64,000 nucleotides of DNA from Gammaproteobacteria bacterium (GCA_965238175.1 CBDEGZ010000003.1:672001-736000), one strand, 5' to 3'. Numbered from the stretch's first letter, positions 33,398 to 42,460 are shown. Notes: generated from the sequence alone by a model not told the origin. A program made the numbers and translations.

Positions 33398-33539
33398 CTG
33401 AATTGCATTCAGTTTTTGAGGATTTATATTAAAAGCAAGGATATTAGTCGACATTATTTGTCTACCTTAACCTGAACTCGATGTATGGACTCGTTTGGTT
33501 TGGTTACTCCACGCTACTTTAGTAGGGTGGGGAAGTCCA

Positions 33540-33700
33540 TACATCGGGTTAATTACATGGTGGATAACTTTCTCTTCCGCATTAAAATGATCCGAACCAG
33601 CAATGGCCATGAATTTCAAACCAGGCTTCATTGGCATGTTTCAGATCTCGGTATAATCAAACCCGCTACGCCACGATTAAACGGTAAAGTAGAACACTTG
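33540..33700 (+). pseudogene. IS481-family integrase-core fragment (different element)
   Basis: RTSNGHEFQ..HWHV.DLGI..IKPATPRLNGKVE. Confidence 0.75.
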
Positions 33701-34045
33701 GCCAGAATCTAGATGAATCTGGAGCCAATGCTTCATCGATCAAAAATAAGTTATCGCTTTCATCTACCCCAAATTCAAATTTGGTCTCGGCAATAATAAT
33801 GCCTTTTTCAAGAGCATACTCAGCGGCTTCTTTATAAAGCTGTAAGCTAACCTCTTTTACTTGAGATGCTTTGTCAGTTGTTGAGCTTGTTTTAATCCTG
33901 TAGCCAATTTAATATCACACACGGCTCCTGAATTTTGATAATCTTTCCAACCAGATCCGATCAAATAACCACGGACAATTGCTTCGACAGGAAGTGGTTT
34001 GAGTTTCTTAACGACAATTGCACGGCCATTTACTTGATCGAATTC
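33697..34045 (-). pseudogene. purC: SAICAR synthetase fragment with internal deletion
   Basis: [18 protein letters not shown], then GIIIAETKFEFG...LIDEALAPDSSRFWP in another frame. Confidence 0.85.
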
Positions 34046-35327: not shown

Positions 35328-35996
35328 ATGAAATACTTAATAATAATTTTTTGTTTTATAGCAAATGATATTTCAGCAGAAGAAAGCATTTGTTTTGGTA
35401 CAACTTCAAATGGAAGATTAGAAAAGGGAGTTCAATTACCTTCGGAAGGAAAAAATTATATTAGCTACAGTTCGCTTGCACGTTTCGCTGGACGAACCTA
35501 TGTACACTCTTCAGTAAGGTCGATAATAGTCAATGCATATAAAACACTAGAGAAAGAACAATCAGATAAAGTATACAAATATGCTGAAACAGGCACGAAA
35601 AATGGTGGGCAATTTAAACCGCATAAAACACATCAAAATGGACTCTCAGTTGATTTTATGACGCCAGTTACAAACATGAAAGGTAAGTCTGTTCATTTAC
35701 CAACAAATCCATTGAATAAATTGGGTTACAACATAGAGTTTGATTCTAAAGGACAGTATAAAAAACTACTGATTGATTACGATGCACTGGCAGCACATCT
35801 TGTTGCACTTCACAAAGAAGCAACATCTCAAGGGTATGATATTTGGCGTGTTATATTTGATCCAAAACTTCAACAATATTTATTTAAGACCATATATGCT
35901 GATTATCTTAAAAAGAATATAAGCTTTTCAAAAAAGAGATCTTGGGTAAGGCATGATGAACACTATCATGTTGATTTTGCAATACCGTGTCGATAG
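35328..35996 (+). CDS. Penicillin-insensitive murein endopeptidase (MepA-like)
   Basis: Signal peptide; GGQF.PHKTHQNGLSVDF and HDEHYHV zinc motifs. Confidence 0.8.
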   Translation: MKYLIIIFCFIANDISAEESICFGTTSNGRLEKGVQLPSEGKNYISYSSLARFAGRTYVHSSVRSIIVNAYKTLEKEQSDKVYKYAETGTKNGGQFKPHKTHQNGLSVDFMTPVTNMKGKSVHLPTNPLNKLGYNIEFDSKGQYKKLLIDYDALAAHLVALHKEATSQGYDIWRVIFDPKLQQYLFKTIYADYLKKNISFSKKRSWVRHDEHYHVDFAIPCR

Positions 35997-36214
35997 AAGT
36001 TCATTAAAAAATCGGGGAGCTTTTGCTCCCCTTTTTCTTGCTCCTGATTAAGATTGTTATCTTCCAAATCATCCAACCATTCATTGATGGCAGAATTTAC
36101 CGAAAGCCTCGACCGAACACGTTGTCCGGTTTTTGACTTTGTGTGAGCACCGCCTTTACGTAGTAGAGGTGATTGGGCTACAGGATTCCTGATAGTTATA
36201 TTTCGTCTTGGCAT
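35966..36214 (-). CDS. Small basic protein, candidate ArfA/BrfA-like ribosome rescue factor
   Basis: SD AAGGAG; NPVAQSPLLRKGGAHTKSK; ORF reads through an intrinsic terminator. Function is inferred. Confidence 0.65.
   Translation of the reverse strand: MPRRNITIRNPVAQSPLLRKGGAHTKSKTGQRVRSRLSVNSAINEWLDDLEDNNLNQEQEKGEQKLPDFLMNFYRHGIAKST
36006..36036. terminator. Bidirectional intrinsic terminator inside the 82-aa ORF
   Basis: A6-TC-GGGGAGC-TTTT-GCTCCCC-T5. Confidence 0.85.
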
Positions 36215-36236
36215 AGTGTTGTCTCCTTATAGTCAG

Positions 36237-36378
36237 TACTCTAACCCGCAGGGCGCTACCGTAGTGCACCGAAACGACGTTGCAGTGCTTGAGAATAGAA
36301 CGCTATTCCCCGCGCACTGCGCCTTGATGCGAAACACCACGATAACGCTGAATACGTCAATATCAACTGGTTAGAGTA
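36237..36378. repeat. TA-flanked MITE supplying the stop codon of the 317-aa gene
   Basis: TACTCTAACC...GGTTAGAGTA terminal IR; internal GCAGTGC..GAATAGAACGCTATTC..GCACTGC hairpin. Confidence 0.75.
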
Positions 36379-37324
36379 CAAGTTTGTACCATGCAACTTG
36401 TTTCAAGCTGCGCTTTTTTCGAATGAAGAAACGATCTTCTTTAATAAAGTCTGGATCTTTATCCGTCATTTGAAAACAGAATTTTCTAGGCAGATCTGAA
36501 TAGATTGAACGCGGTGGTGCTCCACCATCAATCTGCTTTATTTTCTGTCCAGTTTCATGGGTATGATAATAAATATTTTTGATCCCAAGTTCAGTATAGA
36601 TGAAGTCTATTGCCGCTGTCAGCATAGCTTCTGACCATAGATCGTAAAATGGTTTCAGTACTTTTTCAGCATAGGTAATAAAGTCTTCAGGCTTGCATCT
36701 ACACCAATCAAGGTACCAAGGAGCCAGACCTTTCTTTATACCATGTAAACAATATTTTACTCTACGCACCCAATCACTTTGTATTTCTTCGATTAATGCT
36801 TCACCACTGTCCAGATCAAAATCGATGCGTGCCCAGGCGAGTGTATCGCGGTATAGATCACGTTTTTCTCTATTCATTACTGGATGTTCACAATAGTTAA
36901 AAACGTAGTCGTCTTCCGGCCTAACCAACTTGTGATATGAGCGGTTATGCTTTTCCGAAAAATTCAGTTGAAGAACCAAGTTACAGCCTTTGCGTGTGGT
37001 TTGATAATTCCAACGATTGCTATCACCAAATTTATCAACCGTTAATACAAAAACTTGGCTGTTTTCCTTCCAGGCATGCTCAAATAATTCCGATTTTAGT
37101 TTGCCGTTGCCTAGAGAAGCCAGCAATCTTTTTATATCTTGCTGATTCAATAGGTGTTGATATTGTGATCGTTTGATCGCACTGACACTTTCTTTTTCTT
37201 TAGTTGCGTAAGCAAGCAGGAAAAAAGCGTACTGCCCTTTGAAGTAGTGAAATAATGTTCGTTCTTCTGGGAAGCAGGCAATAACTTCATCTAAGATCTC
37301 TTTCTTCATAATCGTAAGTCTCAT
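36371..37324 (-). CDS. Uncharacterised 317-aa protein downstream of rtcB
   Basis: Long ORF with LVLQLNF, LAWARID, LIEEIQSDW, YSDLPRKFCF. Confidence 0.85.
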   Translation of the reverse strand: MRLTIMKKEILDEVIACFPEERTLFHYFKGQYAFFLLAYATKEKESVSAIKRSQYQHLLNQQDIKRLLASLGNGKLKSELFEHAWKENSQVFVLTVDKFGDSNRWNYQTTRKGCNLVLQLNFSEKHNRSYHKLVRPEDDYVFNYCEHPVMNREKRDLYRDTLAWARIDFDLDSGEALIEEIQSDWVRRVKYCLHGIKKGLAPWYLDWCRCKPEDFITYAEKVLKPFYDLWSEAMLTAAIDFIYTELGIKNIYYHTHETGQKIKQIDGGAPPRSIYSDLPRKFCFQMTDKDPDFIKEDRFFIRKKRSLKQVAWYKLVL

Positions 37325-37407: not shown

Positions 37408-38600
37408 TTAACCTTTAACGCATACGATTTGTTTTAACGTATGCACTATTTCTACTAGATCATTTTGATGTTCCATTACCTTGTCGATGTCTTTATAGGC
37501 CGCGGGAATTTCATCTATAATTCCTTTGTCTTTACGACATTCAACACCTTCTGTTTGTGTGATCACATCTTCTTCCACAAATTGACGTTTAGCTGCGCTA
37601 CGACTCATTTTTCGTCCAGCGCCATGCGAGCAAGAGTGGAATGATTGTGCATTTCCTTTTCCCCGAACAATAAACGATTTGGCTCCCATACTGCCGGAGA
37701 TAATCCCTAGTTCATCCAACCTAGCTTGGATAGCGCCTTTGCGTGTTAGAAAAACGCGCTCACCGAAATGGACTTCTTGAGAGACATAGTTGTGATGACA
37801 GTTGATCGCTTGTTTCGTAATACCAAACTTGGGTAATTTTTTACGTAATGTTTTGACGATCAAGTGCATCATTTCACGTCGGTTGGCCATTGCGTAATCC
37901 TGCGCCCATTCAACGGCTTGTACATAGTCATCAAAGTACTTTGAACCTTCCGTGAAATAGGCAAGGTCTTTATCTGGTAGATTTATATGATGTTGGCTCA
38001 TGTCTTTTTTTGCGAGAGCAATAAAATACTGGCCAATAACATTTCCTACACCGCGACTACCGGAATGCAACATGATCCAAACATCATCTTTTTCATCCAG
38101 ACACAGCTCGATAAAATGATTACCACCACCCAAAGTACCAATCTGTCGTATCCATGTTTGGTATGGTCTTTTCTGCATGGAATAGATTTTTTTATGCTTA
38201 CCGATAATTTGATCGAGCCCACCGCTCAGCGCACGAATAGTTGACTGACGCGCTCGATCAACTTTATGCATATTAAATCCTACCGGGATAGCTTCTTCGA
38301 TTGCCAGGCGAACCGCACGTAAATTATCCGGTAGATCTTTTGCCTTGATCGACAAACGTAAAGCATTCATGCCACAGCCGATATCCACACCGACAGCTGC
38401 AGGAATGATCGCTCCCTTAGTCGGAATGACCGAACCTACGGTTGCGCCTTTCCCCAAATGGACATCTGGCATTGCCGCAATATGACTATGGATAAAGGGC
38501 AATTGCGAAAGATTATAAAGCTGTTGCATTGTAGACGGCTCTACCTCGTCGGTGTAGATCTTGACGGGCACTTTACCTTTACTAATTGTTTTTTGAATAT
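37408..38600 (-). pseudogene. rtcB: RNA ligase RtcB, cut off from its start codon (39712) by IS30; internal GTG at 38571
   Basis: MPDVH, GVDIGCG, GTLGGGNHF, HSGSRG, HHNY, SHGAGR, DEIPAAYK, terminal VKG. Confidence 0.93.
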
Positions 38601-39705
38601 GGCGGTTTCAAGTTCCAAGTGCGCCATTAACGGCTTTCAAAAAGACCTCTTCCGGTGTTCGATAGTTGAGTGATTTACGAGGTCGTTGATTAATTAATGT
38701 AACGGCTTTTTTAATCTGCCTTTTTGTTACTTTACGGAAGTCCGTGCCTTTTGGAAAGTAACGTCGTAACAAGCCGTTGGTTTGCTCATTTGTACCACGC
38801 TCCCAAGGGGAGTATGGATGCGTAAAATAAACGGACATTTGTTTACTTTGTGCTATTTCATGATGCCGTACATTTTCACTACCATTGTCCAAAGTCAGTG
38901 TCTTACACAACGTCTCTGGAATGGATTTAAAACATTTCTTAGTGGCCATGGTAAACGTATCTGCACAGCCATCCATTAATTTCTCAGCAAGCAAAAAACG
39001 ACTCTTACGTTCGACATGCGTCGCTAATCCACCCCCGCCTTTGCATCCTTCAACCGTATCACCTTCCCAATCGCCCAGTCGGTTACGTCTGTCGACAACA
39101 GTAGGACGTTCTTCAATACAAACGCGGCCAGGGATATGGCTTCGCTTACCTGCTGGGCGCTGTCGTTTACGTTTGTTATGTTGAGAGCTCAAGCAAGTAT
39201 ATAACTCACCTCCATCAAACGCATCTCGATAGATCCACTGATAAATACATTCTGTACTGACGTACCTTTTAGTCGTTGTTCGTTTCAAATAACCGCTGAT
39301 GGCATCGGGCGACCAATGTTGATGCAATGTTGATGTAAGTGTTTCTGAACAAATTCGTAAAGAGATGCATTATCACGTTTTCGATAATGGCGAGCCTGTG
39401 TCTTACGAAGACAGGCTTGTCTATCAGCAAATTCGTTACAGTAAGATAAGTTTCGTAGGCGACCATTGCGTGTGACTTCTCGGGCAATGGTACTGTGGTG
39501 ACGATTGAGACGTCGTCCAATGTCTCGATAGCTTAATCCCCAGTGCAATAAATACATTAAGGTGTGACGTTCTTTTGCGCTAAAATGATGATAAGGCATG
39601 GCTTTTTCTCCAATAGAATAAGATCTCGACAATCTCATTCTAGCAAGACGGAAAGTCATGTCTTTTTAATCACGGCTAGTGGCGCGCTTTGGAGTTGAAA
39701 CCGCC
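38601..39705 (-). mobile_element. IS30-family element
   Basis: 26-bp imperfect IRs GGCGGTTTCAA...GCGCCA; flanks CTA/ATA on the minus strand. Confidence 0.92.
38608..39599 (-). pseudogene. IS30 transposase frameshifted by an 11-bp tandem duplication
   Basis: HTH (STIAREVTRN), WSP, GDWEGDT, TLDNGSE, PWERGTNE; CAATGTTGATG x2 at 39314-39335. Confidence 0.9.
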
Positions 39706-40137
39706 TAGGCATAACTGTTTACCTCGCTTTGTCCCTGCAGCAGATAAAATTTCAGTGCAGGCACACGTTTTCGTTCAATAGATTTCGCAATCGCAGAACG
39801 AAGATAGCCCTGTATTGCGTGTAGTTTATTTATTACCTGATCCTTGTTTACCACCTGATCTACATTGATCTGACGAATAGATACAAAAAGGAATTGACCT
39901 TCTTCATTTGACTTGACAGCAACGACTTCCAAGTTCTGCAGCATTGGATCATGAAGTCCTCCAGATAAAACGATAGACAATGTTTTTCTCGCCACAGTAC
40001 ATAGTTGTCGGCTTTTATGGCTACTGTTTTTTTATATCTGACGCTCTAGCTAGATAACGTGGATCAACACCGTCTTCAGGGCCGAATTCATCACATAATT
40101 TTTTGGCTCCTATGAGCCAGTTTTTTGATTGTTTCAT
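39705..40137 (-). pseudogene. RbfA-like paralogue with a 1-nt frameshift in an A7 run (40027-40033)
   Basis: SD GTAGGAG + ATG 40137 (MKQSKNW..EDGVDPR) joins SRQLCTVARKTL..DPML..GYLRSAIAKSIERKRVPALKF, matching the RbfA pattern GFLR..LA..L..R.VPEL.F. Confidence 0.75.
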
Positions 40138-41176: not shown

Positions 41177-41409
41177 TTAAAAACACAGTAATGAGCAAGA
41201 GGTCAATTGCATTGATCATGTATCATAACAAAAATGAACAACAACTCTTGATTATTCTAGGGGAGTGATTTTCCTTTTATGATTCTGATAGTTATCGTCA
41301 GCTGAATTCTTTTGGACGTTTGAGGAAATGAATCTTGATCGATGAACATGTGCTTAGATCTGAATTCTAACTGCAAAGCTTTACTTAGCACTCCAAGATA
41401 TATCCATTT

Positions 41410-42460
41410 CAGTGTACCTGAATATCCGGTCGCTGATATTGTTAAAGAAGCTCTTGAAGGCTATGCGTCGGGTCGTTTTGATATGCAAGCAGAGGTCTTA
41501 CGTTTTTTAGAATCAAAGCCAGAATTTACGGGGAGTAAAAAAGGTAAGGTGACTCACAGCATGGTTAGTCTAATGCTAAGTTATTCTCTTTATGCTGGTT
41601 ATATAACGCATGAGCCGTGGGGTTTAAATTGGATAAAAGCGAAGCATGATCCTCTGATCTCTGTCGAGACTTATGAAAACATACAAAAACGTAAAGAAGG
41701 TGTCCGACAAGCGCCAGCGCGTAAGGATATAAATCAGGATTTTGTCCTTCGTGGGTTTGTGGAGTGTGGGGATTGTAATCAGGTCTTAACGTCTTGCTGG
41801 TCGAAAGGAAAACGTAAAAAATACCCTTACTATTTTTGTTTCACCAAAGGTTGTGAGAGCTATAAAAAATCGATCCCAAGAGCGAAAATAGAAGAGGGCT
41901 TTTCAGAAATCGTTCGTACGTTACAACCTACAAAAAAACTGTTCGATTTGGCAAAAGCGATGTTCAAATACGCATGGGAACAACGAGCACTACAAGCTGA
42001 GTCTTCGCAGGAAAAGATAGAGCAAGATATAGAATCAAACGGGAAACAAATTGAAGGTTTGTTGGACAGAATCATTGATACGAGCAATACAAGTGTGATC
42101 ACGGCTTACGAAAACAAGATTGAAAAATTGGAGAGCAATCAGCGTGTTTTGTACGAGAAACTACAAAAAAAGGCGACTCAAAGCGGAGCCATGGAAGAAT
42201 TTTTCGAACACGCTATGCAGTTTCTCGCAAACCCTTGGAAACTATGGGAAAAAGGTGACTTTATGATGAAGAAGGTAGTACTGAGATTGGCCTTTTCAGA
42301 GCGAATTGCTTATTGCCGTGAAAATGGGTTTCGAACACCTGAAACTGCTTTACCTTTCAAGGTGTTAGAGGGTTTTTCGGGGGTAACGAAAGGAATGGTG
42401 GGCCGTATAGGATTCGAACCTATGACAAATGGATTAAAAGTCCACTGCTCTACCAGCTGA
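41410..42460 (+). pseudogene. Large serine recombinase, N-terminal catalytic domain missing
   Basis: YAG..HDPLIS, LRGFVECGDC...YYFC zinc ribbon and coiled coil; reads into the tRNA 3' end. Confidence 0.85.

Follow-up and report, generated by a model that had tools for sequence, protein, structure and literature searches.

Messenger RNA without a stop codon is described as a sensor of trans-translation for two unrelated ribosome-rescue factors, ArfA and BrfA, in the literature consulted (PMC6881298). According to that study, a hairpin within the open reading frame (ORF) deprives the ArfA message of its stop, and brfA, with 71 sense codons, carries a rho-independent terminator inside its coding region and gives a product of ~62 aa that accumulates only without trans-translation. 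Here we describe a small gene of comparable design in a stretch of 64,000 nucleotides from a Gammaproteobacteria bacterium (GCA_965238175.1, CBDEGZ010000003.1:672001-736000), hereafter called the window. The gene, an 82-codon ORF that runs through an intrinsic terminator, was singled out in an original prediction, which proposed a distinct family of alternative rescue factors. It appears to represent a new protein family that uses a known regulatory device, in an operon with the RNA ligase gene rtcB.

With BrfA (Bacillus subtilis YqkK; RF2-dependent) the gene shares a terminator inside the coding region and an approximate size, 71 against 82 sense codons and ~62 against a predicted ~69 aa, and it differs in being the last gene of an RtcB operon. 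ArfA (PF03889) is likewise small and basic, with an in-ORF hairpin that leaves its mRNA stop-less, a likeness read here at the DNA level. The KGKGSY block seen in three ArfA sequences is, however, absent from the small protein, whose signature is N-terminal and whose truncated end is acidic. ArfT of Francisella, said to recruit RF1 or RF2 (PMC6514570, PMC6299226), and other rescue adaptors with a charged helix can be likened to it by description, ArfT being a short protein of this kind.

The RtcB2-PrfH pair offers a different comparison. In that system, when the decoding centre of a ribosome has been cut, PrfH first frees the peptide and RtcB2 then religates the 16S rRNA (PMC9304027). Here too an RtcB ligase gene adjoins a gene for a putative stalled-ribosome factor, whereas the operon holds no release-factor domain and the partners are a paralogue of RbfA, a protein of predicted GNAT fold and the stop-less small gene. 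In the window's genome (G000; 3.35 Mb, 3 contigs, 97.7% complete) RF-1 domains (PF00472) lie at C3:908556, C3:2910889 and C3:3062256, with none near the operon (C3:707-712 kb). The window RtcB reaches 148 bits against the PrfH-linked model TIGR03073 (release_rtcB), below its cut-off of 271.8.

A small gene that reaches a terminator before a stop codon

The small ORF occupies 36214..35966 on the minus strand and encodes a protein of 82 aa that begins MPRRNITIRNPVAQSPLLRKGGAH. The predicted Shine-Dalgarno (SD) sequence AAGGAG is in place ahead of it (Table 1), and every element described for the ORF in the original prediction, the K/R-rich N-terminal half and the signature among them, is present. 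In the family as a whole this N-terminal signature reads RNPVARSPLLRKGG[APV]H. The conservation described below establishes the coding status of the ORF.

The terminator, located by a consensus scan, reads GGGGAGC-AAAA-GCTCCCC on the minus strand, with its stem at 36031..36014 followed by GATTTTTT and its U-run at 36011..36006. In the frame of the small ORF, hairpin and U-run are read as G-E-Q-K-L-P-D-F-L. No stop codon precedes the U-run, and therefore a transcript ending there would stop near codon 69-70 and be non-stop; we infer that this is where the mRNA has its 3' end. The claim that the ORF stays open through GGGGAGC-AAAA-GCTCCCC-GA-T6, with an end near codon 69, thus agrees with our reading of the DNA. 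A stretch of 71 nt over the terminator folds at -19.2 kcal/mol (z-score -3.3), and 0 of 200 shuffled sequences folded as well. Read on the plus strand, the element is also terminator-like and would serve a convergent Peptidase_M74 gene. The nominal TGA of the small ORF lies at 35966-35968, and the last 31 nt of the ORF overlap this M74 ORF, which ends at 35996; the incursion into a mepA-like gene is exactly as long as had been stated. The only Rfam match, to PrrB_RsmZ over the terminator at 23 bits against a cut-off of 44, was taken as chance.

The hairpin is shared among close relatives and the tail is not

A scan of species genomes returned 102 relatives of the small protein, and 80 loci were kept for locus counts. 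The 18 closest sequences, which we call group 1, comprise the window and loci L008-L025 without L015 (a duplicate of L014). A hairpin with a T-rich run lies 45-47 codons past the signature in 17 of them. A strict scan places the expected transcript end ahead of the stop codon in the window and in 14 of the other 17 loci, and L017 shows the same arrangement by eye; placement rests on the strict scan and on direct reading, as a best-hairpin RNAfold scan was noisy. L016 has a TGA three bases past the core GGGGAGC-N4-GCTCCCC stem, or one base past a longer stem, through a one-base difference from L013, and L020 has no hairpin and an earlier stop. As a background control, the same terminator rule was applied to the last 210 nt of long frames, defined as all stop-to-stop frames of at least 150 aa in the 80 loci, spurious frames included. 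It fired in 41 of 807, a count that includes two extended frames of the small ORF itself.

Across genomes, GGGGAGC-N4-GCTCCCC is read in three frames, as G-E-x-x-L-P, K-G-S-x-x-S-P or G-G-A-N-A-P-P. One stem read in three frames is therefore kept as RNA and not as peptide, and the apparently conserved C-terminal residues, including an invariant proline, are a shadow of that stem. At the equivalent place within the ORF, unrelated hairpins occur in Methyloglobulus (L037-L039), in L002, which comes from a same-genus genome, in Arenicella (L040) and in L063 and L043. Between L037-L039 and L002 the stem is shared and carries a compensatory change from an A-T to a G-C pair.

Beyond the hairpin, likeness is lost. 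The first in-frame stop falls anywhere from a few to ~258 nt downstream. A word-index search gave 33 metagenome homologues of 67-104 aa in total length, all unnamed, which are conserved up to the proline of the 3' arm and cannot be aligned past it. Some pairs of coding sequences match at 81-83% over 180 nt without a gap, yet past the hairpin only 9-17 of 120 nt can be aligned, and L018 and L019 align there with frame-breaking gaps. Since the homology of close relatives stops at the hairpin, the conserved unit ends at the terminator. A conserved in-ORF terminator without a stop of its own is a property of the window's clade.

The same arrangement is found apart from rtcB. Three loci (L008, L021 and L023) are stand-alone small genes with no rtcB upstream that keep the in-ORF terminator. 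Two of them, L021 and L023, resemble the window further in that their nominal tail runs into a convergent gene. Judged by sequence, the non-stop device is recurrent in both RtcB-linked and stand-alone clades. It had been suggested that homologues would keep an in-ORF terminator and vary at their C-termini. This describes the closest relatives well, with 17 of 18 keeping it and random tails beyond; it does not extend to many of the more distant members, which stop normally.

An unnamed protein family distinct from ArfA

The small ORF is a real gene of a large and unnamed small-protein family. A profile search against 1.84 billion representatives recovered 971 clusters at 50% identity with E <= 0.001, of which 277 had E <= 1e-10, and the best 150 of the 971 were all 46-165 aa long without a fused domain. 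Among the loci, gammaproteobacterial holders include Methylococcaceae, Thiodiazotropha, Chromatiaceae, Thiomargarita, Albibeggiatoa, Arenicella and 'Rariloculaceae', and betaproteobacterial holders include Nitrosomonas, Casimicrobiaceae and others. A regular expression for the signature matches 163 of 179 stored family proteins and always begins within the first 33 residues. Nine residues (A13, S15, P16, L17, K20, G21, G22, H24 and R32) are invariant in 72 aligned sequences.

Constraint is also visible at the level of codons. In a gap-free block of 38 codons, the 18 sequences of group 1 vary at 37 third, 27 first and 23 second positions. The median ratio of non-synonymous to synonymous substitution (dN/dS) over the N-terminal part is 0.16, with 63 of 64 usable pairs below 0.3; these 64 are the unsaturated pairs among 153. 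The low median points to purifying selection on the N-terminal part. All 17 group-1 loci checked, a set that leaves out L025, retain an SD-like site followed by a start codon, which is ATG in 16 and GTG in L012.

The layout of the protein is an N-terminal signature, a basic stretch and a long helix that turns acidic. From the family alignment, AlphaFold2 predicts an extended signature and a single helix over residues 28-62, at a mean predicted local distance difference test (pLDDT) score of 80. The protein matched no family in Pfam, NCBIfam, PHROGs or PADLOC, and its matches in the ESM Atlas were unnamed clusters only. A profile search of PDB chains, among which are BrfA ribosome complexes, returned a single chance-level row, rabenosyn-5 at E 9.1. 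ArfA was not recognized in the small protein by Pfam at E <= 1, and hhalign gave a probability of 0.1% against 3 ArfA sequences from class relatives. With no match in Pfam or NCBIfam and no solved chain matching, the proposal of a family distinct from ArfA holds. Its regulation appears to be like that of brfA and arfA, yet it would be a member of neither family.

The gene closes an operon with rtcB and an rbfA paralogue

The operon runs in the order rbfA-like gene, rtcB, an optional gene of predicted GNAT fold and, last, the small ORF. When the window's neighbours were used in tblastn, RtcB at 64-87% identity was found within the 3-kb flanks of 37 of the 80 loci. In about 25-28 loci, rtcB is separated from the small ORF by a gene for a 317-aa protein. 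On the other side of rtcB, 15 loci and the window have an upstream gene for an RbfA-family protein, 144 aa long in the loci. The association with RtcB and an RbfA paralogue is a conserved operon. At the operon start, an intergenic stretch of ~470-500 nt lies upstream of the rbfA-like gene (787-1254 in L009 and 793-1293 in L025).

Pfam describes the RbfA family as one of ribosome-binding factors. Against PF02033, with a gathering cut-off of 34.7 bits, the L009 copy scores 43.5 and the window copy 38.0. The operon gene is a second copy, the housekeeping rbfA (103 bits) being at C3:2658902 in G000. The window RtcB matches PF01139 at E = 2.8e-130 over profile positions 1-426, and by NCBIfam cut-offs it is of neither the E. 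coli nor the PrfH-linked type.

A model of the 317-aa protein reached a pLDDT of 83.6 and a predicted template modelling score of 0.88. In VIA-align, all 50 entries shown were GNAT-type, nearly all of them acetyl- or acyltransferases, over residues ~89-317 at Z 6.9-8.8, where values below 8 can reflect a common arrangement only. Foldseek matches were weak (E >= 0.04 at best). Residues 89-317 are accordingly predicted to form a GNAT acyltransferase fold. The protein also has an extra N-terminal domain, and the motif IEEIQSDW is nearly invariant in 22 homologues. A complex prediction for RtcB, the GNAT-like protein and the small protein scored 0.00 and, run without controls, is evidence neither way.

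We found no paper on the signature or the operon, in a search that did not reach the RNA-repair neighbourhood catalogues and supplements that may list it. Papers that join RtcB and RbfA included none on the operon, judged by title and the start of the abstract. The combination of rbfA-like, rtcB and GNAT-like genes points to RNA or ribosome repair and not to a free-standing back-up factor.

Discussion

We propose, with moderate confidence, that the small protein works for an RtcB module of ribosome repair or rescue and that trans-translation controls its supply. In the window's clade, the gene unit would end at the rho-independent terminator without a stop and yield a non-stop mRNA, at whose 3' end ribosomes would stall. 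By analogy with arfA and brfA, the stall would normally be resolved by transfer-messenger RNA (tmRNA) and SmpB, with the product tagged and degraded, and the untagged product of ~69 aa would build up only once trans-translation is overwhelmed or out of action. With the stop-less gene in last place in the operon, the stability of the repair mRNA may be tied to trans-translation capacity, and decay coupled to trans-translation could reach the whole of that mRNA.

The small protein would act on the ribosome, most likely on the 30S subunit or the decoding region. The site of action of RbfA is the 30S subunit, close to the 3' region of 16S rRNA, and it is the partnership with an RbfA paralogue and RtcB that makes the ribosome, probably the 30S subunit, the expected target. 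There the protein would help to rescue or repair ribosomes that RNA cleavage has damaged or stalled. It may fill the place that PrfH holds beside RtcB2, which we regard as the weakest step of the mechanism. ArfA-like recruitment of RF1 or RF2 is one candidate for its activity, and a tentative one. It is tempting to go further and to see the operon as a PrfH-less ribosome-repair module, with the small protein as both sensor and effector, binding damaged or stalled 30S or 70S particles together with the RbfA paralogue and freeing them for religation by RtcB; this we hold to be doubtful. On such a scheme, the protein would escape SsrA tagging only on failure of trans-translation, the outcome expected from nucleases whose targets are the decoding centre, tRNAs or tmRNA, and the invariant GG-x-H loop may aid peptidyl-tRNA release or present the cut RNA ends.

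If the gated-factor model is correct, the family would be the third, independent of the other two, to use the non-stop device, and the device would stand for the first time at the end of an RNA-repair operon, possibly governing the whole repair response. The large unannotated family is in any case linked to an RbfA paralogue, to an uncharacterised protein of predicted GNAT fold and to a clade of RtcB. This RtcB and RbfA context adds interest beyond that of a free-standing rescue factor.

Several observations weigh against the model. The charge layout is the reverse of that in ArfA and BrfA, with the basic part N-terminal and the truncated end acidic. G000 has a short RF-1-domain gene that resembles ArfB. 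In the window the module is damaged by an insertion sequence (IS) in rtcB, by a frameshift in the rbfA-like gene and by a repeat ahead of the small ORF. Nor is the non-stop design family-wide. Of 31 distinct loci with the small ORF behind rtcB, the hairpin falls inside the ORF in 17; the loop or U-run contains the stop codon in 2 (L016 and L028), and the other 12 reach a stop ahead of any terminator. In five Chromatiaceae the small gene directly precedes rtcB and ends in an ordinary stop. A Casimicrobiaceae type, found at 19 loci (L053, L066, L068 and 16 others), is ~54 aa long and has a normal stop and no rtcB nearby. Finally, on the RtcB tree L020 and L034, which both stop early, pair with each other within the window's own clade.

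The members with ordinary stops differ in their surroundings as well. Genes of the Casimicrobiaceae type have a constant 36 codons from signature to stop and lie between an amidase gene (PF01425) and a ChaC-like gene (PF04752), the latter starting at the stop of the small ORF. A Rariloculaceae type, at 12 loci, has other, unnamed neighbours, in which no relation to the GNAT-like protein was found. Since such members exist, the basic activity of the protein does not require non-stop synthesis. The RtcB tree was built from 32 operon rows (16 in-ORF, 11 stop-first and 5 with the small gene upstream), with the second RtcB of G000, entered twice, as the outgroup; L002, L037 and L047, where the RtcB match was split or cut, and the duplicates L015 and L029 were left out. 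To explain the in-ORF state on this tree takes no fewer than 3 changes, or no fewer than 2 if well-supported branches only are counted.

It is unlikely that the in-ORF terminator has no regulatory role, with the cassette simply ending there after a dispensable acidic tail lost its stop and the protein being made anyway through read-through transcripts, ArfB release or drop-off. Such a view would account for homology that ends exactly at the terminator and for the patchy, transfer-like distribution of the operon, and both designs are evidently tolerated, as the stop of L016, L028 and L043 falls in the terminator or beside it, and that of 12 rtcB-linked loci comes earlier. However, the ORF stays open through the hairpin in three frames and across at least 4 unrelated hairpin sequences, more than one change is counted on the RtcB tree, and the 14 of 17 loci contrast with the background of 41 in 807. 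A single base change makes a stop, as L016 shows against L013, yet stops are rare. A free-standing back-up factor, recruiting RF2 or RF1 in the manner of ArfA or BrfA and linked to RtcB by incidental co-transfer, also seems rather improbable to us. A terminator placed as in brfA, the stand-alone copies, a host without ArfA and a small charged protein with one long helix would all suit it. The searches, however, found nothing similar in ArfA or among solved chains, the acidic end of the small protein corresponds to the one that in ArfA and BrfA enters the mRNA channel, ordinary stops occur in many members, and an RtcB neighbour at 37 of 80 loci with an RbfA-like one at 15 is too regular to be incidental.

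Two further readings were rejected. The small protein is very unlikely to be the antitoxin, regulator or substrate of its GNAT-fold neighbour in a pair of the TacT/AtaT kind, even though the 317-aa protein matches GNAT folds in VIA-align and its gene is immediately upstream in ~25 loci. The pairing is not obligate: L009, L012, L022, L024, L025 and L034 have rtcB and no GNAT-like gene, and L008, L021, L023 and the betaproteobacterial loci have neither. No toxin or antitoxin family was matched in PADLOC or Pfam, and toxins of the TacT type are half as large as the GNAT-like protein, so that a TacAT or AtaRT type of system was set aside. Least probable of all is a translation-coupled attenuator, in which the translating ribosome melts the hairpin and polymerase reads on downstream. 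The small ORF does span the whole hairpin, but no downstream gene is conserved; the next genes vary and are often convergent (window, L009, L021, L023 and L025), and on this ground the attenuator was dismissed.

The window copy and its host

G000 encodes tmRNA (tag ANDDNYALAA), SmpB, RF1, RF2 and two RtcB proteins, and at E <= 10 no PF03889 match for ArfA was found anywhere in it. ArfA was found in only 3 of 300 class genomes, too rarely for a test of co-occurrence. The ArfA gene of one class relative (L102) has an ordinary stop, followed by what appears to be the 5' part of a tRNA gene (~250-300). The second RtcB of G000 (L100; C3:425961-427091, 417 aa) is very divergent, with a tree branch length of 2.15, and no small-ORF partner was found near it.

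When six same-genus genomes were searched for the small protein, G004 gave a clear match (E 8.8e-11) and G002 one at chance level (E 0.06). The window RtcB is closest to RtcBs of unrelated taxa. This kinship, together with the patchy presence within the genus, suggests that the module was acquired by transfer.

Table 1. Features of the module and its surroundings in the window
Feature	Position	Strand	Remarks
Peptidase_M74 (MepA-like) gene, convergent	35328..35996	+	outside the module; only in the window's own locus
Nominal small-ORF tail and TGA stop	35966..36005	-	beyond the terminator, not conserved
Intrinsic terminator inside small ORF	36006..36031	-	7-bp GC-rich stem, 4-nt loop, GA, T6
Small-ORF part expected in mRNA, ~69 codons	36008..36214	-	signature RNPVAQSPLLRKGGAH, basic stretch, acidic helix end
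Spacer, GNAT-like gene to small ORF	36215..36370		~130-nt repeat inside; ~12-15 nt in relatives
Shine-Dalgarno AAGGAG	36224..36229	-	8 nt 5' of the small-ORF ATG
GNAT-like 317-aa protein (predicted fold)	36371..37324	-	no Pfam family; optional middle operon gene
rtcB, RNA 3'-phosphate ligase (PF01139)	37408..38571	-	first 11 codons and native start cut off
IS30-like element	38601..39705 (approximate)	-	in rtcB codon 3
rbfA-like gene (PF02033)	39705..40137	-	first operon gene in relatives

The small ORF of the window, its SD sequence and its terminator are intact, and the damage lies upstream (Table 1). The IS30-like element has an HTH_38 ORF at 39659..39285 and an rve ORF at 39327..38608, apparently split in two frames, and its terminal inverted repeats begin GGCGGTTTCAA. 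After the insertion, the first usable start of rtcB is a GTG 11 codons in. Compared with L009, the rbfA-like gene is frameshifted near codon 36-40. The ~130-nt repeat (36241-36370) has four further copies in G000 that are 73-85% identical, and it may be an element resembling a miniature inverted-repeat transposable element. Given this damage to the module, the small gene may be silent in this genome; a search of sequencing runs listed no RNA run that covers the stretch. The region is flanked by a transposase fragment (33485-33712) and by an ORF resembling a serine recombinase (41342-42460; Recombinase, Zn_ribbon_recom), and the module lies in an island-like stretch.

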